DNA of 53,112 bases, filler included, from Bipalium vagum (Eukaryota): the NCBI GenBank assembly GCA_037834085.1. It is 3 parts of 3 records of this genome, joined end to end, with 100 filler letters (N's around TTAATTAATTAA, not from the genome) between each part and the next. Parts side by side here need not be neighbours in the genome. Positions count along the whole stretch, not along the records: positions 1 to 16,763 come from JBBMKC010095230.1; 2 more parts are not named here. One strand, written 5' to 3'. The notes under the pieces are model-generated. The model had not been told where the DNA came from. It did not search any database and saw only the letters and a list, made by a program, of their open reading frames with translations. The position numbers and the translations under genes were made by a program. Each line of letters opens with the position of its first letter. The first letter of the stretch is position 1. Of the stretch, positions 1 through 16,763 are shown one piece after another.

Positions 1-47
1 TATATATTTATTTATTATCATAATATATATTATACTACGTATTATTA

Positions 48-236
48 CTACTTAGCCGAAGAAGGGCAAAATGAAGTTAACTTTCTTTTGTCTCTTTTGC
101 GTTTAAGCAAACCACTACCTTCTTGGTGATTGTTGAAAAGGAATTGCAGTGCCAACACTAGCGGATGAGTGGCAAAAATGAAGCTCAACGCCAATGCAAT
201 ACAAAACAACGACATCCAGACGGTAGAAAATAAACT
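48..236 (-). CDS. Possible terminal exon encoding a hydrophobic (TM-like) segment and a basic tail
   Basis: 63 open codons after a TTTTAAG acceptor: SLFSTVWMSLFCIALALSFIFATHPLVLALQFLFNNHQEGSGLLKRKRDKRK...*. GC is higher than in the flanks. Upstream exons could not be joined in phase, and a decayed transposase is an alternative reading. Confidence 0.25.
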   Translation of the reverse strand, partial: SLFSTVWMSLFCIALALSFIFATHPLVLALQFLFNNHQEGSGLLKRKRDKRKLTSFCPSSAK

Positions 237-1616
237 CTTAAAAAAAGAATTAGAATATTAAAAACCTAGTACTAAAGATGATAAGAAAATTGTCTATTAA
301 AATAAATGTTGATTTTTCTTTCATTCTAATAATAATTTTCGACATCTTTTTTTCTTCATCTATTTCTGATTTGATTATTGTTTTGGTATGATTATATTTA
401 AAAATATATCTCTATAAATTAAACAACCTTTTTTAATATCATAGCATCTATTAAACAATAATAAAAAATTGAATTGATCAATAAAAATTTCACTATTTCT
501 TAGTTTTTCACCATGCCATTGTTTTATTAATTTTTTTCTTTATTATCGCTGATATAAAATTATAACCACAAAATTCTAAACCTGGATAATTTGATAATAT
601 GATTTTGATTTGTACTGAAATAATGTGGAAAACATCACATCGTACCTTTAAAACCAAATGTAATTGGGAAAGCTATCAATTAAAAAGTATTGAATCAACA
701 AAAAATTGTATGTGATTTTATTCTTACAATTAATTTTTTCAACTGGTAATTTATTTTAGATTATCCAACTTAATATTGGGTAATTATCATATCTTTTAGT
801 ATGAGTTATAAAAGTATGTTTAAAATCTTTACAAAAGAAAAGTTTACAATAAGTATCAATTAAAAAAAATGAGTGAGTGTGTTCAGCGAAAAACGCATCT
901 TCAATTATTGTTTGAGTATTATAAGATATATTATCAATTGCTAAGTCTTCTAAATTTTCAGTTTTAAAAATAAAACTATATTATTTTGAATTTTATAAAA
1001 TATTTAACTTTCATTATCAAAAGCTGTAGAATAATTCATTTCATGATAAACGGCATTTTCTTTAATTGCATCAAAATCAAAAATTAAACATTTATTACTT
1101 TGTTTAAATTTTCCTTCATTATTTTTAAAATAACATTCATTACCACGGAACATCTCTAGTCTCGAATAAAATATAGTATTCTTTTCTTTATTTGGAATTT
1201 ATTTTTTAGTTTTCTCAAACTTTTAGCCCAATCTTCTAAGACACTTCATCTCATGTACCTCTTAATTATTTCAATTTTCTCGTTATCCTTTTGATCGCTC
1301 TTCCTTGTATATAGAATCTATATAAAGATTCTGAAAATTTCTATCGAATGTCTTAGATCTTTGGATATTTCTCTGGACCTCTATGAACAGTCCCAATATA
1401 GTTTAATAAATATTTAGCTCATTCGGCAACGAAAAAAGTGAACTTCACTCAGAAAATTCTGTCTTTATCATATATTTTATTATTAAATATTATTTTATTA
1501 TTATAATTATCAAAGTCAAGGCCGACCAGGTCTGACCAATCATTTTATTCTTTAATGAGAATAAATAATGCTTTTAAATTTGAGGTTCTTTAAATCACAT
1601 TTTCCTTGAAAACTTG

Positions 1617-3365
1617 TCACCTATCGTCTAGAAATGGGTTTTTCAAATGCATCCATTGAAGGAGTTGTTGGGCGGCGTCTCGACATATTGGGTCCGGAAG
1701 GAGAGTTCTCTCTAAAAGAAGCATCATGTTCTCCGACATCGGTTTCAAAGGTATAAAGTCGATTTTCTTTTCAATTGCAATCTTGAGGGCAGGATTGGGT
1801 TCATCATAATAAGGAGGTTTACCTACGGAATTTATAGAAAGAGTCTTCATAAAAGATGTGAAAATAATAATAATAATAATAAGAATAAAAATAAGGATAT
1901 GTGAACCGACCCGACAACATTGCCACACATGTGGCCCCGAACGACCAAATATCCGAAGAAAAGTCGAAGCGGCCTTCAATGATGACCTCTGGAGCAAGAT
2001 ACGCAACAGTTCCATGCGTTGACGTTTTAAAGTGGACCGTAGCATTGGAGTGCCCTGACCGAGAAAGTTCATTGTTATTATCTTCCGAACAGAGACCAGG
2101 ACATGTTAATATTCGACCAAGTCCAAAGTCGTACAACCTGACTGTACCGCAATCATCGAGCAGAATATTTTCAGCTTGAGAATGAAAACAAATTATGTCT
2201 GTGTCGAAAATTGTCATTGACTCGACCAAATGAGCACCATTGAGAAAGGTGGATATTTTGGTTTGTGCTTCTCTTTAACATTTTTATGGAGAACCGCGAA
2301 ATAATAAAGTACTTCAAAAGTTACATATTTGAGGAGTGGAAGAATGGAGAGAAGGTGAATCCATGGTGTAAGATTGAGTGGGATAAGCTCTCAAGTGGAG
2401 CAACCCCAATTCGCCTCATTTTTGTCTACATTGTCACTTTCTGAGAATTTTTTATAAATTTCTATTGAATTCAGGCTTGAGTAATTACTTAAGAAAGGTC
2501 AGAGGACATTTTTCGCATAAAACGTTCATGGAAATGCTTTGAACCAAGGACAGCTTTGGAAACGTAAAGCTTTACAATGTTTAGATAATGGAAAACCCTG
2601 CATAAGAGAGTGAAAGGTATTCACAAAAGAGAGCAAGATACGTTTCAAATGTTTGAATTGGACGAGAGACAAACCAAATTTCCGCCTCTCTCAACGATTT
2701 GTGGTCTTTATTCACAGATCAATTACGTTTGATATCGCGGTGGATGATTCCATTGGAATGAAGAAATTTCAACCCTTCAAGAATTCCCTGGCCATAGAAC
2801 ATGATTGTTCCATGGGACACGGTTTCATATTTAATAATCTGATCCAGAGACCCCTAAAATAATGTTAACACAAATTATAGCCTGGTTTCCATCATTTTAG
2901 AATATTATCTCTTTCATTCCTCAGCTCTTTATGATTTTATCATTATTATCATTTGAAGAGACTTTTATTACTATTATTGACAAGGGATAATAAAGAATCT
3001 CATTTAACTGCCACGGGTTTTCAAAATATAAAGTGTTATCAGACTGAATCTCTGTTCCCAAAGCCAGATAAAAACGAAAGGAAATAATAAAAAAATCAAA
3101 AATTCTCTTACAGGAGCATATCTCATTAATACGTAAGACCGTTCTTCGTCCGACCTCTCCCCAATGTACTCCACTATATTCTCGTGGCGGAGACTCTTCC
3201 CAAGTTGGCTCAGATTGTGCTCCACACTTTTCTCGTAATTTTCAATCTGTTTGTGCTGGATTTTCTTCATCACAAAATTTGGATCAAATTCCTTAACCTT
3301 ATAAACCTTGCCATATCCTCCTTGACCAATCTTCTCTTTTGTTTTAAACGTCTTGAAGGCTGCAG
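1617..3365 (-). CDS. Ser/Thr protein kinase domain, STE11/MAP3K (MEKK-like) type; multi-exon; 5' end unresolved
   Basis: Exons ~3365-3112 (KIGQGGYGKVYKV, VMKK, LRHENIVEYIG, LMRYAP), 2853-2727 (GSLDQ...ILEGLKFLHSNGIIHRDIK), 2174-1911 (PENILLD, DFG, GTVAYLAPEVI, SDIWSFGATCVAMLS) and 1822-1617 (GKPPYY...ALKIA...PDPICR...QLL, TGA). GT-AG junctions with compatible phases. The family call rests on motif resemblance only. Confidence 0.9.
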
Positions 3366-3831
3366 CTGAAAAATCAAAAGTCAACGAGGTCAAATCAGAT
3401 TTTGAAAGTCAAATAAAATAAAAAGAGCAAAAACAAAGAAATAGTTCTTTCGAAAAAAATTCGAATCCTTCGGGAGTGTTCTTCCAGTCAAACGTTTGTA
3501 TCAATATTCACTCCTTCGAGATCTCCGGTCGGATCTGATTAAAACAAAAAATAATAAAATTCAAATTATTCTTTATTCGGTTCACCGAGGGAATTGGTTG
3601 GAATAAAATTATTCTTGTTCAAGGAAAGATTTCGATATTATTGTAAAGAGACTCTTAACGCAGTCCAGAGCATTTTTTCAAAGGGTTTTATTTTATTGAT
3701 CTATCTTCAAAATGCTGCACCATTTTAATTTAAGGAAATTGACGAAAGAAAAAATGAGCTTCCAAGCGTCATACCAAATAGTCGTCCGCCGTCTTCAACT
3801 GTTTAATAAAAAGTAAAAGAAAAACGTTGAC

Positions 3832-3907
3832 CCTTACAATTTAAATTGAACAAAAGTTCCCGAACGAAATCTTCATCGGAAGAAGTGAGTAATGCTCTTT
3901 TGTCCTT
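3832..3907 (-). CDS. Probable exon following the last ankyrin repeat (KDKRALLTSSDEDFVRELLFNLNCK..., possible capping/linker helix)
   Basis: TTTTTCAG acceptor at 3908. Open in phase 0 after exon 3998-4096. Candidate phase-1 donors near 3831-3837; if unspliced the frame stops near 3804. Confidence 0.55.
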
Positions 3908-3997
3908 CTGAAAAATATTTTATTTCTTTTTGAAAAATAACAAAAATTAAAAATAATATTCATTTATTATTATATTAATAAGAGAGCACAACAGTAC

Positions 3998-6900
3998 TTC
4001 GTCAAGGGTGTCACACTTGTAATCATGGTCCAGTAAGAACTTAACTACATCGATGTGTCCATTGAGACTGGCAATATTAACAAGATTCCAGTTAGCCTGA
4101 AGTAAACCATTACATGCACAAAGCAATCAATATCGATTTTTTTGCTGAATAGAAACTTGACAATGTCAACATGACCTCTCTGGACAGCCAAATGCATCGG
4201 TCTCCAATTATCCTACATTCATGAACGACTATATATTAATGTAAAATATAAATCAATAACTTCGTCACAAGCCCCCATGTCACAACCCGTCTCAAACAAG
4301 AACTCCACGATGTCAATAAAACCGTTTTCTGCTGCTAAGTGAATGGGCCTCTTATTATTCTGAATTTCTTCTTAAGATTTACTTATTGCAATTAAGTTAA
4401 AAACTTGGTCACAAGCCTCTATCTCACAGTATTTCTCAAACAGGAACTTGACAATGTCAAGATGACCGTTTTCTGCTGCTAGGTGAAGTGGTCGCTTATT
4501 GTCCTGAATTTCTTTTTAATAATTATTTATTACCAAAAAATCAATAACCCAGTCACAAGCCTCAATATCACACCCCTTCTCAAAGAGAAACTTGACAATA
4601 CCAACATGACCTTTTTCAGCAGCCAGGTGACAGGGTCTCCTATCACACTAAATTAATATTTGAAAGTTATTTATTGCAAATAAAACAATAACCCAGTCAC
4701 AAGCTTCAATGTCACAATCCTTCTCACATAAGAACCGGACAACATCAAGATGACCGTTTTGTGCTGCTAAGTGAATCGGATGAAAAGTATACTAAATTGA
4801 TATTTTAAAATTTATTTTCAGAGTAAACCGGATAACCTTGTCACAAACCCCGTTACCAGAACTCTTTTCTAAAAGAAACTGGACAACATCAATATGGCCA
4901 TTTTCTGCAGCCAAAGTGATGGGCCTCCTTCCAAACTGCACTCAATTTTAAACAAATTATTTAGAATAAAACAAGAACTTCGTCAAAAGACTTAATGTCG
5001 CAATTCTTTTCATCCAAAAACTTGAGAATTTCAAGATGACCTCTTTCAGCAGCAAAGTGAATGGGTCTCATTCTACTCTGAATGAAATTTTAAAACCTTT
5101 TATTGAAATTAAATCAATAACTCTGTCACAAGCCTCAATGTCATAACCTTTCTCAAACAGAAACTTGACAATATTGATGTGACCATTTTCTGTAGCCAAG
5201 AGAATGGGTGTCCTTTTAAACTAAAATCAATTTTACAGACGAATCTTTAAAAAAAAATCAATAACGTAATCAAAAGTGTACACGTCACAACCACTGTCAA
5301 TCAAAAAGTTGATAATATCAATGTGACCATTTTCTGCTGCAAAGTGAAGAGGTGTCTTATTTGACTGAAATTATTTTCTAAAATGGTTGATTGAGAATGA
5401 AAATAAGAAAACCCAGTCACAAGCCTCAATGTCGCAACCATTCTCAATTAAGAACTTGACAATATTTAGATGACCTCCTATTACAGCTGAGTGAATGAGA
5501 CTGGAATTGTTCTTTATCTCCTTTAAGAAATTATTATTTATTGAGGAAGAATAAACCTTTATTGGAGCTTCAATATCACATCCCCGGTCAAATAAAAACC
5601 TGGCGACATTTAAATGACCATTTCCTGCAGCTACCTCAATGGGTCTCCGAGAATACTGTTAGGTGTTCATAAATTATTTAATGAAAACAAATGAATAACT
5701 TTGTCAGGGATATCAATGTTACAAGCCTTCTCAAACAAGAATTTAACAATATCAAGATGACAGTTTTTAGCAGCACTGTGAATGGGTCTACAATCGTCCT
5801 GAGCTCATTTTTAAAAATCAATTATTAAGAATAAATCAGCAACCTTATCACATGTCTCAATATCAGAGCCGTGCTCAAACAAGAATCTGACAATATCCAA
5901 ATGACCGTTTTGTGCAGATAAATGAATAAGACTCTTTTTACTCTGAATTTATTTATTTTTATAAAATTTATCTGGGAATTTTAATTACTTTGTCACAAGC
6001 CCCAATATCACAGCCCTTCTGAACCAAGAACTTTACGATATTATTGTGACCTTTAGTAGCAGCTAAATGAATGGGTCTCCTTTTTTTCTGATTAAATTTT
6101 AAAATGTTTTCAAAGGAAAAAGCAAAAAACTTTGTCACTGGCCTCACCATCACAGCCGTGGTCAAAAAGAACTTTGACAACATCAAAATGACCGTTTTGT
6201 GCAGCTAATTGAACTGGACTCCTTTCCATCTAACTTTAGTATAAAATTATTTCTTGAAAACTAATCAAATACTTTATCATGAACATCAATATCACAGCCC
6301 TTTTCAAACAAGAAATTGACGATATCAAGACGACCATATTCTGCAGCCAAGTGAATGGGTCTCCGTCCATTCTAAACTCATTTTCAAAAATTTTCAATGG
6401 AGAAAACATTGATCACTTCATCACAAGCCTCAATGTCACAGCCCTTGTCAAATAAGCATTTGAAATCCTCCAGATGACCTTTTTCAGCAGCTATGTTCAT
6501 GGATACAGTTTTCTGAAATTATTTCTTAAAGTTATTGATTAATCAAATTAAAGACCCAGACATTGTCTTCAGTATTAGAATTCCTTCTCAAAAAGAACTG
6601 GACAACATTAAGATGACCATTTTCCTCAGCCAATTGAAAGGGTCTCTTATTTTTCTGAACTCAGTTTGAAAAATATTTCATTGAGAGTAAATTAATAACT
6701 TCGTCACGGGCTTCACAATCACAACCTTTCTCTAAAAGGAATTTCACAACATCAAGATGACCTTTTCTGGCTGCCAAGTGAATGGGTTTCGAGTTAGTCT
6801 AGATTAAATTTTAACAATTATATGTGGAGAACAAATCAAACACCCAGTCACAAGCTTCCATGTCACTACCGACTTCAATTAAAAACCTCAAAATATCAAT

Positions 6901-9800
6901 ACAGCCATTTTTTGCAGCTACGTGTATGGGTCTCCTACCCAACTGAATTCATATTTCAAAATTTACTTATTGAAAACAAGTCAATACCTCGTCACTTGTG
7001 TGTATGCTGCAACCTTTGTCATACAAAAACTTGACAATATCCAGATGATATCTTGCTGCGGCCAGATGAATGGGTCTTCTGTTTTCCTGAATTCAATTTT
7101 TAAAAAAATTTCTTGGAAACAAATCAATAACCGAGTCACAAGGCTCAATATCGCAACCCTTTTCAAACAAAAACTTGATAATATCAAGATGTCCCTCTTC
7201 AGCTGCCATGTGAACAGATCTTCTTTTATTCTGAATTCCAATTAAGAATTTTTATTGTGAGCAGATAAATGACTTTGTCACAGGCTTCAATATCGCAACC
7301 GTTTTGTAACAAATACTTGACAATATCAATATGACCTTTTGATGAGGCCAAATGAATTGATTCATTTCTATTCTGAAGAAATTCTTAACTTTTATTTCTC
7401 AGACAAAATGAAGAACTTCAAAAAGACAGGTTTTCTCAAACAAAAATTTGAAGACATTCAGATGGCCATTTTCTGCCGCTAAGTGAATTGGTCTCTTATT
7501 CCCCTGAACTCATCTTCAAAAATTATTTATTGAGAACAAATCAATAACTTTGTCACAAGCGTCAATATCATACCCCTTCTCAAATAAAAACTTGACAATA
7601 TCGATATGACCCTTTTCAGAGGCCAAATGAATTGATTCGTCTTTATTCTGAATAAATTTTGAAAGGTTATTTCTCAGTCGAAATCAAGAACTTCAAAGAG
7701 ACAGGACTTCTGAAAAAAAAAGTTGAACACATCCAGGTGACCATTTCCTGCCGCTAAGTGAATTGGTCTCTTATTCCCCTGAACTCATCTTCAAAAATTA
7801 TTTATTGAGAACTAATCTATAACTTTGTCACAAGCGTCAATTTCACAACCATTGTCAACCAAAAACTTCACAACATCAAGATGACCTTCTTTTGCTGCCA
7901 TGTGAATAGGTCTTCTATTATGCTAAAGTCACTTAAAGGTGAATTCTTGACAACAAAATTACAACTTGATCACAAGCCTCAATGTTACAACCATTGTCAA
8001 AGAAGAGTTTTAAAACAGCCAGATGACCTTTTTCTACTGCTATGTGGACAGGTCTCTTCATTTGCTGAATTTCATATTATAAATATTTATTTATTCAATA
8101 TTTACGGAGAAAATAAAAACCCTGTCACAAGCTTCAAGGTCGCAACCACTCTCAATTAAAAATTTCGTAATTTCAATGTGATGATTTTCTTCAGCTAAAT
8201 GAATGGGTCTTTTTCTCTTCTAAATTCAAGCTTATAAATATCATTTTAAGTAAGCCTATAACTTTGTCACCAGAATCCAGGTCACAGCCCTTCTCAAACA
8301 AAAGTTTAACAATATCAATATGACCATTTCGTGCAGCTAAGTGAATAGGTTTGGCATTGGTCTAAATTGGTTTTTAAAATTTATCTTTAGAGAATAAATC
8401 AAGCACCCAGTCACAGGCCTCAATGTCACAATCCTTTTCAATTAGGAACCTGACAATGTTATTGTGATGATTTTCTTCTGCTAAGTGAATGGGTCTCTTT
8501 TTATACTGAATTCAATTTTAAAAATATTCTGATCACAATAAATCACTGACTTTGTTACAAGCCTCAATATTGCAACCCTTATAAAATAGGAATAGGGCAA
8601 TGTTAAAGTGACCTTTTTCTGCAGCTGAGTGAATTGGTCTCATACCTTCCTGAATTTCTTTTTAAAAAACTGTTTTTTGGAATCAAATCAAACACCCTTT
8701 CACAGGCCTCAATGTCGCAACCATTCTCTACTAACAACTTGACAATATTTAGATGGCCTTTTTCTACAGCTAAGTGAATGGGTCTCTTTCCCATCTGAAC
8801 CAAATTTTATAAATAATCTCACTAATACTATCACTAACCATGTCACAAGCCTCAATATTGCAGCCTTTCTCTAAAAAGAATTTAAACATGCTAAAATTAC
8901 CGTTTCCGCCGCTATATGGATGGGTTTGGTTTCCTTCTATTTTAAGATTTGTAATTACCCTTAGACAGTAAGTCAAAACCCTAACCCAGTCACCGGCCTC
9001 AGTGTCAGCACCCTTTTCAAACAAAAACTTGACAATATCAACGTGACCATTTTCTGTAGCAAAGTGGATAGGTTTCACTTTAATCTGAACTCAATTTTAA
9101 AGTTTTTAAAGTAAAAGTCAACAACTTTGTCACCAGACTCAATATTACAACCCTTGTCAAATAAAAACCCCAAGATAGCAACATGACCTTTCTCTGCAGC
9201 CAGGTGAATGGGTTTACAACCAAACTGAATGGATTATTATAAATTATCTGTTGAGAATAAATTAGTAACATTGTCAGAAACATCAATGTCAGCACCCTTG
9301 TCAGACAACAGCCTAATATCAATATGACCATTTTCTGCCGCACCGTGAATGGGTCTCATACCATTCTGGAATGATGTTTAGAATTTGCTTACGGAATAAA
9401 TCAATAACTTTATCACAAGGCTCAATACGACCACCCTGATCAAAGATAAACTTGACAATATCAACATGGCCTTTCTCTGCAGTCAAGTGAATGGGTCTTC
9501 TATTATTCTGAATTCATTTTTGAAAATCATTTCTTAAGAAAAACTCAATAACTTTGTCACAAGATTCAAAGTCGCAACCTCTCTCAATCAACAACTTTAC
9601 AATACAAAGGAAACCCTTTTCGGAGCACAGGTGAATTGGTCTTCTAGTGTCCTACGTACACCATTTCTCAGTTACTCAACACCAACAACCACGTAAATCA
9701 CCTCTCCACATATTTCCAAGTTGAGCGGATTTTCTGCAAAGGCCTTTACTGTTTCAAGTTGACCCTTCTGACATGCAGCAAGCATTGGGTGAGTTCTTTC
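3998..9800 (-). repeat. Tandem array of ~144-nt units (99-nt ankyrin exon + ~45-nt intron), 41 copies
   Basis: Period of about 142-145 nt. Introns share a consensus like GTTATTGATTTATTCTCAATAAATAATTTTTAAAAATGAATTCAG. 18 of 40 introns are exactly 45 nt (range 17-56). Confidence 0.95.
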
Positions 9801-9845
9801 CTACATGAAAAATCACGTCATCCTTTGAACCTTACTATAAACCAT
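3998..9845 (-). CDS. Multi-exon ankyrin-repeat protein: start exon (MVYSK) plus 41 single-repeat exons, about 1350 aa; 3' continuation unresolved
   Basis: Start exon 9831-9845. Repeat exons in transcript order: 9702-9800, 9553-9651, 9409-9507, 9270-9365, 9126-9224, 8986-9084, 8839-8936, 8696-8794, 8551-8649, 8407-8505, 8263-8361, 8121-8219, 7966-8064, 7824-7922, 7692-7778, 7549-7647, 7417-7503, 7274-7372, 7132-7230, 6988-7086, 6844-6942, 6700-6798, 6556-6654, 6417-6512, 6273-6371, 6131-6229, 5989-6087, 5844-5942, 5700-5798, 5557-5655, 5413-5511, 5266-5364, 5122-5220, 4979-5077, 4837-4935, 4693-4791, 4549-4647, 4405-4503, 4261-4359, 4114-4212, 3998-4096. All are bounded by AG/GT at the same phase-0 position. 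Consensus xxxRPIHLAAExGHLDIVKFLFEKGCDIEACDx matches the ankyrin pattern (TPLHxAAxxGHxxIVxxLLxxGAD). No in-frame stops apart from one 98-nt frameshifted exon (8839-8936). Confidence 0.93.
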
Positions 9846-11957
9846 ATATTTATTTGGGCGATGAAACGTCGGTCGCCGTCCAAGAAATAAATATTCAAAA
9901 TGATCGGTAATCGACCATTAGAATTCAAAGAAAATTGTATCCAACCCTTTCGTGGAAAAAATTGTAAATAAATTCATTTATAAAATAATTCGTTTCCGTC
10001 ATCGAAAACTTTTTCCAGTTCGATTTAAAGTTAAAAGATCCTTTCATTAAATCAACCGACCTTTTTATGAGTATTCGTCTTCATAATTGGTTCTGTTCAC
10101 GGAAATATTTAAAAACGGTTCGGAAATCCAGCGAAAATTAAAACAAAGAGAGTTTTCCGCTGGTTTTAAATAAATTCTTTTTAATAAAATCAGACGAAAA
10201 ATACGTTTAAAATATGACAGCAAAAGAATATTCGAAAGAAAAGGAAATGTTATTTAAATAATAATAAAAATAATATTTATTTAACATAATTTAATTAAGA
10301 AGACAAATTAAATTCGAATTTAGATTCAAGAAAACATTTAGTAAAGTAGTGTAGTTTTTAATTTGACGAGTTTCCTTAAATCCCCACTGTATTACTGACA
10401 GAGAATAATTCGTTTGTAAATGATTTAAAACGTGTCTTTAGACAGTTTGACATTTCATAATCTAACTTAATTAAATTTGGTCTAAAATATTAACACAAAA
10501 CTGGATCTGGCTTCCAATACCTTTTGGTTGGGTATACATTACGGAACGAAGCACCACAGATTCAAGTATATTCAAAACCCCATCATAAATTAATGATATA
10601 TTATTTAGATGGTTGAAATTCTATTTAACTGCCGCTAGGTCAAATTTGTTTAAATGTTTTAAATGTAAAATTTCTTTTAACAGGTTTATTTAATTTATAA
10701 AATTATTTTTTCTACTTCAATTACTCCCAGATTTATTTCTGCATTTAAACCCATTTCATGGGTGCTTGTTGATTTTCAATACATTTTTTTCAACTACTCG
10801 GACGACGATATTTTTATCAAAAGATATCACCAATTGACAAAACCCATCGACAGAAAAGCAGCCAAACTATCGAAAAAACATTAATGTGATTGTGACGGAA
10901 TGATTTCAGTCAGATTGTCGAAAAAGAGTTCAAATAATATTGACATTTAAAATTATTAATATGAACATATTAACATTCATTTTGAATTGAAAATAATGCA
11001 CTTATTCCCGACCCAATAAATCAAGGTTACTAAAAATTGAGTTAAATAGTTACTTTAAACAAATGCAAAGTGTTGCACTGATATCGAATGAGATATCTAA
11101 CTAGTTATCCATACACGTACTTCTTAAATATTTTAAAATATTAACTAATACATGTACCAGAACTTAGCATAAATATTCAAAAATGAACAAGACTCAATGT
11201 TCACACCTTTTATCAATGTGTGCCAATCAAATTCATTGGAATTCGACAATCTTTAGAATTCCAATTTGATTTATACAATTCAAAAAATATTACGAACTCC
11301 AACTCATCAAAACTTATTTTAGTAAATTAAACATCCGTTAATTTACAGGTTCTCTATTTTAAAACAATCACCCACTCCAATTATACGAGCCACTCGTTAT
11401 ATGAATAACTTATATTTTCTTAATTTTCTTGGAAAGTCTGTGGCTGTCACATTGAACCTTAACTAAATGGCAAGGTAGTCCATTATAAACATCCCCGCAG
11501 AAGAATAGAAGAATGAACCACCTTTTGTTCGTTTGAAAAACAAGAAGAAGTCTAAAAAGAATGAAGCAGCAGTTATAAATTTAATGAAATTATTATTATT
11601 AGCCATTTCAAATTGGGTAAACGTTTTAAAAATTTATTATGATTAATATTACTCTGATTATTTAAATGGTTATTAATACATAGCCCATTTAATCAACGTA
11701 CTCCACGCACGAACTCTGACCGTGAATTTTTTCTCTCAGTGTAAACAACGTCACACCATCAGTATTATGCTTTTTTCTACATAGGATTACCACGTCACTT
11801 CAAAAAAGTAATACAAACGCAATTAACGACTACCTTTGTTTATTCAACTATCAGAACATTCTTTCCTCAATACCCAACCGGCCCTCTAAACACAACTCAA
11901 CACTATATAAACATCTAACCATTAAACTCTCATCTTCGTCTCAGTTTTCTTAAAGGA

Positions 11958-12330
11958 TTAGGTGTACAACTATGACTCCGACTTTTTTTTAATAAGAAAA
12001 CAAAGACATTTATTACAAATTCTATTTTAAAACATTTATTGAAAATATGTTCCATTGGAAGCTACAACTTTTGCTCACCTTTCAGGTAACGAATGAATTC
12101 CATGAAAGAAAAACTCTGACTCTTTTGATGAAATCCAGGTGTCAATCCAATTTTTGAGGTCTTCAAGGGAACTGACTCGCTGATTGCAAAGAGCGGAACA
12201 AATGGTAAGCGGAAGGAGCGATGTCTGGTGAATCTGGCGGGTGAGGTAGGACTTTGTACCTTCTAAGTAATTATTTACAACTGAATTAACCTGTGGTCTT
12301 GCAAGAAAAGACAAAAAAGCGTACTCATCA
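11958..12330 (-). mobile_element. Mariner (DD34D) transposon remnant, 3' end with TIR
   Basis: Frameshifted VLPHPPDSPDIAPSAYHLFRSLQ (cf. YSPDLAPSDYHLF) and EDLKNWIDTWISSKESEFFFHGIHSLPER*AKVVASNGTYF. TIR-like TTAGGTGTACAAC at 11958. Confidence 0.9.
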
Positions 12331-12779
12331 AAGAAGAACTGCAATGGTCCTCTCCATCTCATTGTATGAAAACATTTCTACCCAGAATCTGTACTTCAGT
12401 ATAATGTTGGTACATTTCTGGGTTGGCAGCAGCCGCTATCTAATCCTTTATGAAAATACAAAATTCCGAGCATTATCGTAACTTTATTCGTTATCCACAT
12501 TTCTAAATTTGTGTCTTTTTATATTTTTTTATCTTTCATGTTTTTAAAGTTAATTTCCATATGATGTGGCACTTTCATTTAGAGTAATTGGAGCTTTTTA
12601 TTAACGTTATCACGAATTATTAGATCTGGCCTAAGTCTTGTGGTTTTCCAAGTTCGATAGGTTTCACGTCTATGTCTAGACTAAATCCAATGTCTTAAGT
12701 ATTTTCAGCAAAAATCTTCTAATACATTGTCATGTTTTATATTGTTACCTAAAGGAAATGATTTACAGTGATTCAATAT

Positions 12780-13545
12780 GTGAACCTGAGTTTATGGTGT
12801 GAAAATTCCAGGTTTTGCCAAAACAGTACAGATCCGTTGTACAACTTAAGGAAAGCTACAATAACTTCACTTAAATATTTTGATGAATAGAAATAAAAGA
12901 TCCACTTTTCCTTCCCCATGTACAAATTGTCTGCCAAATTAAAAATTTCTTTGAATATTTATCAAGGTTGCATTCTTTAAATTTATTAGAAACGTTTCCC
13001 AGTTCATTGGCAGTGCAAATTTTTGTGATGGTATCTGATTAAATTCTGCCTTTACATAGGTCTCACCATCCAAAATGACACAGTCGTATTTGTAAATAAC
13101 TTTATCATATAATTTACGTGCTCTGATTTTTGCTAATTTATTCTGCTTTTCTGTGCGATTTGGTGCAACATTAACTTTATATGAATGCAGTCCAGCCTGT
13201 TTACGGACTTTGTGTACGTAGGACGAAGACATATTCACTTTTTTGGTAACAGCCCTCACCGAAAGTCTTGGATTACGTTTTGGATAAGATTTGAATAAAA
13301 TGATCAAAGAACGAATATCAACACTAGTGGCCGCAAAACACGGGACACATCTGTTCAGCTCATTGAAATCACTGATCCAGCCCGTTGGTGACCGCGGTCC
13401 TGATATTCTCATTTGACTCACGTGATGTGAAGCTTGATAAATATTATTTTCAATGTTTTCATTGCTTTATGTTATCCAGAACATTGGGAACACGATTTCA
13501 TTTATTTCACATATAACCATTTTCATTCTTCTGCCATTTTGACAT
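12780..13545 (-). mobile_element. Degenerate Tc1/mariner transposase, DD37E (ITmD37E-like) type
   Basis: ORF 12939-13421 has HTH-like RNPRLSVRAVTKKVNMSSSYVHK, then AKIRARKLY and CVILDGETYVKAEFNQIP (cf. MDDETYVKADF.QLP of DD37E elements). Downstream frameshifted KFLIWQTICTWG and VLFWQNL. Boundaries approximate. Confidence 0.75.
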
Positions 13546-13554
13546 TTTTTTTTA

Positions 13555-16500
13555 TTCCAAAGATTCTCCGGCATGGAAACTAAAATCTTCAACCGTGCTC
13601 TGCAGACCACCGGTTTTTTGTCAATCACACTGTCCACGAGTCAGAGGGGCCAGTTGGATAGGCTGCATCCTCTGTTGACAAAATCAACATTTCTCATCAT
13701 CATCTCGCAATTTGGAATTGTCCCTACTTCTGAAAGGTGAAATTAAATGTTTGTGCAATTAAATCGCATTTAATTAACTCCGCAATATTCGGCCTCGGTG
13801 AGCACTGTCACGCTTGATGATTATAACAATTGAACAATTCTACACATCCAAAGGACAAATAATTAATTGACAATGACAAAGAGAAATAATAATGAAAATA
13901 TCGAAGAAGGATTCTGTTACTGTTAATATTGTCCGTCGGGGACAATGAGGTTTGACTTCTTTTGTTTGGAGGTAATCCGAGGATGAATTCCGTTAGTCTA
14001 ACAAAACAAAGGATGTGGTCAATACGAAGAGTCTCTTTGTAGACCTTAATATGTGCTGGGTTGACAACATCACGCAAATATTTATATCAGTTTATTCTGC
14101 CTGCGAAGATAAAAGTCAGTTTACTCTAGGGGCAAATAACGATTATTACCTCTTAGCTAAGCTTCATTGGGGTGGGGAGTAGCCAATTTTACGAACTATT
14201 TCTATTATTCTTGAAGGAAACCCGCAGTGAATACCTTTTTAACAGCTATTGTATTTTAAACATTAAATATATTTTTATGTGGTACTATTTTCATCTATTG
14301 AAATGTGAAATGCTTAGCTCACCCTTACCTATCGTGTTTATTAAATTTATCGTACTAAAAACTGTTTTCTGTTGAATCAAAACAACCCCAATAAACGCTT
14401 ATCTCGATTCTCACCAAAGTGATTCAACACAGTCACAAAAAACCCTTCATTACATTTATAACCATTCTCAATAACACATTCAATAATCACACGGACCACA
14501 GTCAATATTTGCAGCTCACAGAAAAGTACACCAAAGGTTCTGAATATATCTCTCATATCAACCAAATCGAGCATCCGTTATGCCAAATGACAATTGATCG
14601 AAACGTTAATCAAATGTCAATCCAATAATATGAAATTAGGTAGAATACCAATTAAATTCTCGTACCCTCAGCAAAATAAGTCCTCGAGTCATTTTTAAAG
14701 TAAGACGGTTTTACGTGCCCACTTTTAACAATACCTTAATGAGGTTTCATAAAACATGTTTACTTCAATCACGAAGAGAAACTCAACGTTCTTTTACAAG
14801 GCTGAGGATGCTCTTTTTGTCACACTATTTCCCCTAACATAAAGGGGTCACCGAATTATTTAAAGTTCCCTTTTGAAATCGAATTAATCGATGTCAAACA
14901 TGTTTGGACGAAAACCGTCCTTTGAGTGAGGTCACATTTAAGACAAGCTAACGGCGGACTCCGACAAAAAGGGAAGTACCTTCTCAACCACAAACGACGG
15001 AAGAAGTTGTTCAGCAGGACATGGTCAGGGCCAGTTCCGGAAAGAATCATTTCATCATGAAGATTGTTTATCTTCTTGTGAAACCTGAGAGAGTGGCAAT
15101 TGAAGCTCACTCCTTCCAAAGGCTCATGTTTCGGTATAATTATCCGGGATACTTTTTCAAGCACCCTAGCTTGCTGTACCATAAAATATGATAGTAACTT
15201 CAATCTTGAAGCGACAAAAAGGTTCTGACCATCAGAAATGATGCACAAAGAGAAAGCAAGGCGGAAGCCACCTTTTTTAACACAAGATAGATATGAAATA
15301 TGAAAGGTCGTTTTATTGTAAGCCGCGCTCCGTTTGCGGACACAAATACCTCAATGAAAGGGGCACTGGAAATGCAACTGATCATTCAAACCAGAGGCCA
15401 AAGCTGGAGGATATTTTTTTCTCCGCAAAAATGGAGAGGTTGGATTCCTAACGCTGCCTCGAATACGACCTCCGATCATGTATGATCCACTTCGATCCAC
15501 CGTCAGTCCTCATACCATTTACACAGTAGCCCATGAGAGCTGGCCACATGTACGGTCGGTCTGGTCGACGTCCAACCGTGTCTCACCTCCGTGACTGTGA
15601 CCGACCCCTCGACAATTGATCCATTGATAACGTTTTGAATGTCTTCCTTCGTCTTTGCCTCGAAGGAATTTTCTCGAAGGGGATGTTGATCAATTAAATG
15701 TTAGTTTTGATGTTGCTAGCGGAAGGTAATGATGATCATTGAGGACTGCGGTGATTGAAAGGGATTAATGAATGATTTCAATATTGGCGCACGTACGTCT
15801 TTCATATGTCATTTTCATTTCCTTGAATGAGCTCTGATTTCAAAAGCCCTTAAAAACCACTTTGAGCTAATAAAGAAATTGAAGTCACCATCTCTTCTTA
15901 GTGGACAAACCAAGGACGACAATAGAAAACAAGACCTCAGACATTGGAGGGGTATTCCTCACTTCCTTTCTAATTGTAAAATCCTTCGCAAAGCTCTCCA
16001 TCCGAGAATAAGGCTAGGCGGTCCATATTCAATTAGTAGACCTTTGAAAGAAGGGTTCGAGTCCGGGTCGGGTTTTTCATCAGCCTGATTAATTGGGGAG
16101 ACTGCAGAGACAACAACCCTCGTTTGGCCCACTGGACCATAGTGAATTAATTCAATTATATTCCACCGGTTTTCAATCTATTCAACATTACTCCTTCTGA
16201 CACTTTCCCCCTTGTATCTCCATCATCTGGTCGTCAAACGTTACCACAATACACAGGGATTCTATGAGATGTCCACGCCATGCCTTTGTATGACAGCATG
16301 GTCTTACAGTGGTCTGTCCTTCAAACTGGGAAAGATTTTAAAGACTGAATTTACGTCCCTTTCCCATAGTAAACTTTTCAAAACATCCAGCGAAAGATAA
16401 CGCCTGTCTCCTCTGTCAAAGTTACCCAAGGATCATTTGTCACTAGAGCCGACTTTGACATGATTCTGGAGAACCACAAAGCAGTTTTCAAAAAAGTATT

Positions 16501-16720
16501 ATCACCTTCCTTTTCCATTAAAACAGAGAGCGAAAATGTATCCCGAGAGCACTGGTACAGCGCCTTCCCAGTCCTCTCCCAGCGGTGTTATCCTGTCTCA
16601 AGCAGAACGATTTTTCCTACCCTTCCCTCAGGCCTGTCTCTCCTTCCTCTCTTCCTGTGAGGAGACCCTTCTTTTGTCTCAGCTCATGTCCTCATTGATT
16701 TGCAACAACAGCCCTTACGG
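13555..16720 (-). CDS. Probable compact multi-exon gene(s) of unknown function with micro-introns
   Basis: GC is visibly higher than in the flanks, and several minus-strand ORFs occur (13808-14077, 14377-14574, 14856-15248). Frames can be linked through short GT-AG segments such as 16326-16354 (29 nt) and 16014-16041 (28 nt). No recognisable domain; exon structure and gene number are not resolved. Confidence 0.4.
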
Positions 16721-16763
16721 CAATCGATAAACGACACACTCCCTCTTTTTATTATTATTATTA

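Follow-up and report, generated by a model that had tools for sequence, protein, structure and literature searches.

This report deals with a gene on the minus strand of a 53,112-nucleotide (nt) stretch of DNA from Bipalium vagum (the window; three joined parts, filler included). The gene lies in the first of these parts (positions 1-16763; contig C95230 of assembly G000), where an array of ankyrin exons runs from 9800 down to 3998 and is followed by a kinase, and it is a member of an ankyrin-kinase family that is specific to the lineage and has an ankyrin-RING family as its sister. The reading that we favor, and which we hold to be somewhat probable as a whole, is that of a family of long ankyrin solenoids fused to a kinase, with varied binding partners and with repeats that are turned over at the DNA level. 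Herein, the one-repeat exons would all be spliced constitutively, yielding a long cytosolic ankyrin solenoid followed by the kinase, and the groove of the solenoid is predicted to bind varied partner proteins. Repeats would be gained, lost, and mixed at the DNA level, likely by unequal crossing-over, while the family itself probably undergoes birth-and-death turnover, the window copy being a member that may have been broken recently. The proteins could thus act as sensors or targeting modules, most plausibly in defence or non-self recognition.

An earlier, sequence-only reading of the array had counted 41 ankyrin exons, and exactly this number of AG..GT-bounded exons was recovered on the minus strand, each encoding one repeat. 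Most of them (36 of 41) measure 99 nt; exons 4 and 24 have 96 nt, exons 15 and 17 have 87 nt, and exon 7 has 98 nt. The introns are 41-56 nt long with a single exception of 17 nt, and all ankyrin exon junctions are in phase 0. The array has a tandem period of 144, and its 33-residue repeats fit the ankyrin profile, with Pfam Ank above the cut-off for exons 2 and 38, below it for exon 41, and without a match for exon 1 alone. In the gene model, the array leads through a 70-nt linker to the kinase and the stop codon. Read by eye, this model predicts a likely cytosolic product, in which eight polar residues are followed at once by the repeats. Another ATG stands immediately before exon 1, but it is absent from the paralogs and was therefore rejected as the start. 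The parts of the gene are listed below.

10061..10084, minus strand: likely first coding exon (ATG plus 7 codons, phase-0 donor), proposed from an ATG exon with the same donor upstream in two paralogs
9702..9800, minus strand: ankyrin exon 1, N-terminal capping repeat; a homologous exon opens the array in 14 other loci
4261..9651, minus strand: ankyrin exons 2-39 in phase 0, most of them 99 nt long, separated by introns of 41-56 nt; tandem period 144, with Pfam Ank matching exons 2 and 38
8839..8936, minus strand: exon 7, 98 nt, with a one-base deletion causing a frameshift; spanned without a gap by a run X1 contig
7274..7778, minus strand: recent two-exon block duplication, exons 15-16 / 17-18 (87+99 nt); tandem period 275 with 84% matches, paired by the copying model
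4114..4212, minus strand: ankyrin exon 40, penultimate repeat, with homologs in paralogs
4097..4113, minus strand: 17-nt intron, likely too short for splicing; the intron at the same place has 40-54 nt in nearly all paralogs and 153 nt in one
3998..4096, minus strand: ankyrin exon 41, C-terminal capping-type repeat, from its exon boundaries; Pfam Ank below cut-off
3838..3907, minus strand: conserved 70-nt linker exon, phase 0 to phase 1, from the exon model and paralog comparison
3112..3365, minus strand: kinase exon 1, with Gly loop, beta3 Lys, and candidate alphaC Glu; Pfam Pkinase E=2.7e-10
2727..2853, minus strand: kinase exon 2, with the HRD catalytic loop at its end; Pkinase E=2.9e-8
1911..2174, minus strand: kinase exon 3, with DFG, a long activation segment, and APE; Pkinase E=3.8e-12
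1617..1822, minus strand: last kinase exon including the stop codon, conserved in paralogs

The codons singled out beforehand as variable are codons 33, 1, 2, 3, 8, 11, and 12 of the exon. The last codon varies as described (K in 15 of the 41 exons, E in 9, W in 7, R in 3, Q in 2, and N, M, S, Y, and H in one each). In the original designed ankyrin repeat proteins (DARPins), repeat positions 2, 3, 5, 13, 14, and 33 were randomised, and this set was used in our mapping. When numbered as in the PMC4308713 scaffold, repeat positions 2 and 3 correspond to exon codons 33 and 1, respectively; the phase-0 junction thus falls within the beta-turn, between these two positions, and the claim that it cuts through the tip of the beta-hairpin is borne out. 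Parts of the same source give positions 2, 3, 5, 10, and 13 as those of high entropy in natural ankyrins, randomised together with 33 (PMC4308713). The variable codons are accordingly placed, by residue numbering, at predicted binding-groove positions, as had been proposed, with the exception of codon 2, which corresponds to position 4 and belongs to the framework that is not randomised in this scaffold (PMC4308713).

Mean entropy is higher at the seven codons than at the others, both in the window (2.37 versus 1.34 bits over 33 internal 99-nt exons; permutation p=7e-5) and in the family (2.96 versus 1.57 bits over 471 exons; p=1e-5). The proposed contrast between a variable face and a conserved framework therefore holds for the seven codons together, but not for the helix-1 codons of the window (1.66, 2.08, and 1.83 bits), which are no more variable than the outer codons 22 and 24 (2.08 and 2.15). 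Elsewhere in the genome, conserved ankyrin genes (L081/82, L084, L086, and L088, which we take to resemble ANK1/2) place acceptors and donors identically in many of their repeats. Moreover, the per-column entropy of the family tracks the profile of 50 unrelated repeats, with a Spearman coefficient of 0.80 that drops to 0.74 when the columns dictated by the search pattern are removed. Given this shared intron position and shared entropy profile, the hairpin intron and the variable face are generic ankyrin features. The sole remaining contrast with unrelated ankyrins is that the outer face of the family is far more uniform (1.74 versus 2.77), whereas the groove is not (2.96 versus 3.21). Linkage across the intron was 0.23 in the window versus -0.08 within the exon (29 units); in the family, it was no different across the intron from within the exon (0.105/0.079; 0.037/0.070). 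The hairpin intron is in the ordinary position for ankyrin introns, which keeps the gain and loss of repeats frame-safe, and is no special diversifying device.

The sequence-only reading had further suggested that shuffling would create new junctional surfaces, and at the DNA level, the arrays are indeed rearranged. Long stretches of repeats are collinear between paralogs, block duplications occur within and between copies, and there are mosaic arrays, with units differing by 39% at the median. A preference of the crossovers for introns, on the other hand, did not emerge. In a copying model of 237 units, 32-33% of the switches fell in introns, where planted crossovers gave 27% when placed uniformly, 92% when confined to introns, and 12% when confined to exons. 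A strict set was restricted to switches between dissimilar units and left out two arrays without close relatives, the window's array among them. Here the intron share was 28-29% (29 confident events in exons and 13 in introns), with calibration shares of 35-36% (uniform), 49-54% (intron-only), and 28-29% (exon-only). The inferred crossovers are thus not enriched in introns in either the full or the strict set. New hairpin tips do arise, yet most crossovers appear to keep both halves of a tip together.

For the selection analysis, we used our own grid versions of the site models M7, M8, and M8a instead of codeml, with nucleotide branch lengths on a free scale; small negative values in the likelihood-ratio tests (LRTs) reflect a grid error of a few units. 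Trees were based on exons and also on units centred on the intron, as exon ends and middles can differ in history. Introns as a clean neutral yardstick were rejected, since their divergence amounts to 0.68-0.71 of the synonymous rate and they also entered the tree building.

The ratio of nonsynonymous to synonymous divergence (dN/dS, or omega) at the variable sites had been put forward as the deciding measure, where values up to 1 and a diversity no greater than that of introns would speak for relaxed constraint only, and the results largely fall on that side. Between sister pairs, dN/dS at the seven sites is 0.76 (0.56-1.04) over 42 pairs and 0.68 (0.56-0.83) over 72 pairs, or 1.12 and 0.96 relative to introns. 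The corresponding values are 0.51 and 0.41 for the outer face, 0.20 and 0.22 for the core, and 1.05 and 1.00 for the two junction codons. The binding face thus changes about 3-4 times faster than the core, at approximately the neutral rate, and overall omega in the repeats is 0.31-0.50. For the window's 34 exons, M8 brought no gain over M8a on the exon tree; site omegas were 0.7-1.5 at codons 1, 2, 3, and 33, none of them significant, and 0.4-0.6 at codons 8, 11, and 12. Strong positive selection across the whole face is excluded: simulating omega=2 at the seven sites gave LRTs of 96-111 (2 runs), whereas the real data gave 17.3 on the same tree and 4-24 over the observed range. Null simulations reached 1.1-4.0 on one tree (3 runs) and 0.1-10.7 with recombination (4 runs). 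We infer a relaxation of constraint on the groove; positive selection, if any, would be weak and confined to the two junction codons.

Several observations weigh against the reading of a constitutively spliced family with a relaxed groove and a role in recognition. In a close clade of 202 exons, M8 beats M8a with an LRT of 24.0 (F1x4) or 12.6 (F3x4), and its exon trees give an omega of about 1.5 at codons 1 and 33; on junction-centred trees of this clade (167 units), the gain is marginal (LRT 5.3 and 4.2). The junction codons also lie above intron divergence, at 1.54 (0.98-2.26) and 1.41 (1.11-1.74), with introns at about 0.7 of dS. Lesions without an obvious in-frame rescue are present in 11 of the 24 arrays of at least 8 units (manual count). 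Some units, such as unit 22 of contig C218654, are heavily decayed amid intact neighbours, and dead exons can therefore perhaps be skipped. The strict crossover calibration is noisy, its control without crossovers having yielded 88-104 switches. Finally, the role in defence or non-self recognition, which we deem most plausible, is a putative one.

The signals at the junction could be the visible part of an arms race, in which diversifying selection acts across the groove, as reported in fungal NLR ankyrin repeats, and is masked by averaging over lineages. Such selection would agree with an omega of 1.2-2.7 at codon 1 in all close-clade and window analyses, with a groove entropy near that of unrelated ankyrins next to a homogenised outer face (2.96 versus 3.21 and 1.74 versus 2.77, as above), with three kinase sites that also exceed 1, and with the fungal precedent (parts of PMC4986451). 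We nonetheless regard it as unlikely. The helix-1 codons stay at an omega of 0.3-0.85 in every site model, M8 has no gain over M8a in the 266 more distant exons, one of the four null simulations with recombination reached an LRT of 10.7 by itself, and site-wise tests with a free synonymous rate give LRTs of at most 4.5 for omega above 1. Junction-centred trees of the other sets give LRTs of 5.5 and -3.8 (29 window units) and 0.75 (234 units), and on such trees, codon 1 alone stays above 1. What persists overall is a slight surplus of amino-acid replacements in the pair of codons next to the junction, and one or both of these may be under weak positive selection.

Lesions bear on a second alternative. 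Joining all window exons leads to a stop at residue 227, caused by the frameshift in exon 7; when exons 7 and 40 are omitted, a frame of 1591 codons is open. Both lesion sites are crossed gap-free by contigs of run X1, which is probably the assembly's own source data; the joints in this run, short pieces that derive from paralogs, were set aside. With its 98-nt exon 7 and its 17-nt intron, neither of them mentioned in the sequence-only reading, the window copy is either a young pseudogene or dependent on exon skipping, and as omega on its kinase branch is 0.49, below 1 (LRT 6.2), the lesions would be recent or tolerated. By curated count, 53,777 nt of ankyrin exon contain 13 stops or frameshifts and 18,585 nt of kinase contain 3 (p=0.78), a similar density that fits the death of whole genes. 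Loss of single exons over evolutionary time is plausible.

If exon 7 is instead omitted and the copy is active, the family may be a combinatorial receptor repertoire, in which symmetric exons are alternatively skipped and every transcript can carry new hairpin tips. The phase-0 junctions throughout, the open frame of 1591 codons, and the decayed units within otherwise intact arrays all suit this idea, as do the broken-array loci with visible kinase exons, six of seven of which show no stop or frameshift in the kinase (manual count). Brown-algal ROCO and NB-ARC-TPR genes provide a precedent (parts of PMC11378527). Against this, 495 of 555 units are intact 99-nt exons, lesions are as dense in the ankyrin exons as in the kinase, and paralogs agree in the order of their repeats over long distances. 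Very short introns, moreover, tend toward one-by-one splicing, and all in all we judge such skipping to be distinctly unlikely.

The kinase of the window gene looks intact in an alignment of 19 loci, where the motifs that we take to be the Gly loop, beta3 Lys, HRD, DFG, and APE are all visible, and the family is predicted to encode a Ser/Thr kinase that has kept its catalytic motifs. The domain evolves fast (omega 0.42 over the 19 loci) and has a long, variable activation segment. Three alignment columns stand at an omega of 2.2-4.0 (LRT of M8 over M8a about 8), for which alignment error is a possible cause. The best PDB matches of kinase exon 3 are weak (E=1.7e-6) and belong to STE20-group kinases. 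Among 1.84 billion representatives, no close relative of the kinase was found, only generic kinase matches, and queries with single kinase exons, which are weak tests, had no match in a collection of 5.8 billion; a metagenome search returned two loci at 36% identity.

Returning to the family of solenoids and kinases that we favor, its extent within the genome is considerable. Kinase exon 1 found a match in at least 34 of 54 candidates, which sets a lower bound on the family's size. Between 6 and 41 repeats make up each array examined, with introns mostly of 40-50 nt. In the fetched contigs, there are 555 ankyrin units, namely 495 intact 99-nt exons, 28 in-frame variants, 11 units cut by contig ends, and 21 flagged units, some of which were relabelled on inspection. 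A further array of 33 units was found later and stands outside these counts and analyses. Some close copies may be alleles rather than paralogs. On contig C216135 (L011-L014), two members are arranged convergently, so the family is at least partly clustered. Upstream of the window gene (about 12000-13500, minus strand), decayed transposase fragments, presumably Tc1/mariner-like, are present, and similar ones lie upstream of two paralogs. Locus L053 (contig C12873, minus strand) has two ankyrin exons with the same boundaries at about 7713-7459 and kinase exons at about 2828-1316; its kinase is more conventional-looking, with 35% identity to kinase exon 1. This locus is possibly near the family's ancestor, the ankyrin-kinase join there being putative.

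In a second ankyrin family with similar repeats, again one to an exon (L090-L095, L097, and L099), the internal introns come later by exactly one codon and so separate positions 3 and 4; the last exon, by contrast, stops at the usual place. Pfam recognises a C3HC4 RING finger at the end of two loci, and a third locus shows a RING-like start. This family yielded 65 DNA matches among the 40 scored of 146 candidates. Examples are the following.

L095:1042-2320, plus strand: locus of the second ankyrin family
L093:9054-9419, plus strand: locus of the second ankyrin family
L090:8591-8764, plus strand: locus of the second ankyrin family

Neither the ankyrin-kinase nor the ankyrin-RING family is described in the open literature searched. 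A preprint on flatworm duplications, in the parts consulted here, merely names ankyrin and kinase domains among the frequent duplicates (10.1101/2024.02.05.578899).

Expansion on this scale might also be largely non-adaptive, with an unstable 144-nt unit, a drifting copy number, and an array that is a spacer or generic scaffold. The near-neutral groove, the high overall omega (0.31-0.50 in the repeats and 0.42 in the kinase), and the many broken copies would be expected in that case. We find this explanation very improbable, as the core codons are clearly under purifying selection (0.20-0.22), the groove changes faster than the equally exposed outer face, and the second family has a similar array with another effector domain.

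The assembly contains at least three distinct COX1 sequences as well as many broken copies. When three COX1 loci were translated, AAA read as Asn (the flatworm/echinoderm code) in two and not in one, and the assembly may be mixed, with more than one animal. A flatworm is accordingly the likely host, and the family contigs would come from that animal. The other two stretches of the window have a G+C content of 17-30%, versus about 34% for the ankyrin-kinase gene.

By analogy, the family would work most like three known systems, namely the Nek and 21.1 proteins of Giardia, fungal ANK-NLRs, and brown-algal ROCOs, and it is a member of none. The Nek-ankyrin and Protein 21.1 families, as portrayed in parts of PMC3218828, are likewise lineage-specific and of fast turnover, and in them a divergent kinase is fused to an ankyrin array that is variable and bears a repeat signature of its own; related proteins carry C-terminal RING domains. 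There, however, the kinase is N-terminal, many kinases are catalytically dead, and repeats number 1-26, whereas here an N-terminal array of up to 41 repeats, one exon each, precedes a C-terminal kinase with catalytic motifs. The likeness is drawn without demonstrated Nek homology: the Giardia order is an N-terminal Nek kinase and then TALM-type ankyrins, but our kinase is C-terminal and the repeat signature differs.

Brown-algal ROCO LRR genes, according to parts of PMC11378527, share the coding of one repeat per symmetric exon, a repeat number that varies, a concave face with variable residues, and a C-terminal enzyme domain, and the window array has this exon organisation of the ROCO / NB-ARC-TPR type. 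They differ in having LRRs, phase-2 exons of 72 bp, and a ROC-COR GTPase, as well as four positively selected sites and documented splice variants, where selection is at most weak and constitutive splicing putative in our case. No ROC-COR, NB-ARC, or NACHT domain lies between the array and the kinase; in a Pfam search of 8 exons, the sole families above the cut-off were Ank and kinase ones.

Fungal ANK-NLRs, in the portions of PMC4986451 and PMC13449251 that concern us, change repeat number and exchange repeats between paralogs by unequal crossing-over, with variation on the inner helices and hairpin. The block duplications and mosaic arrays described above amount to repeat gain, loss, and paralog exchange of this kind, yet the fungal genes have NACHT or NB-ARC domains, repeat identities above 85%, and clear positive selection. 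With canonical ankyrins and DARPins, the family has in common the 33-residue repeat, the same variable columns, and the phase-0 intron position found in the genome's conserved genes; the latter hold many repeats per exon, in contrast to the one exon per repeat and the kinase fusion seen here.

It is tempting to combine these parallels into an intracellular variable-receptor repertoire of a likely flatworm lineage, with kinase and RING-ligase outputs, DNA reshuffling, and combinatorial skipping in the service of non-self recognition, a picture that we consider highly doubtful. For ankyrin arrays in general, a variable binding face and an intron at the hairpin tip alone signify neither selection nor designed shuffling. 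Should the family be a set of defence sensors, animals would join brown algae, fungi, and Giardia as a source of variable repeat arrays coupled to an effector enzyme, and a testable candidate for invader recognition in such worms would be at hand.

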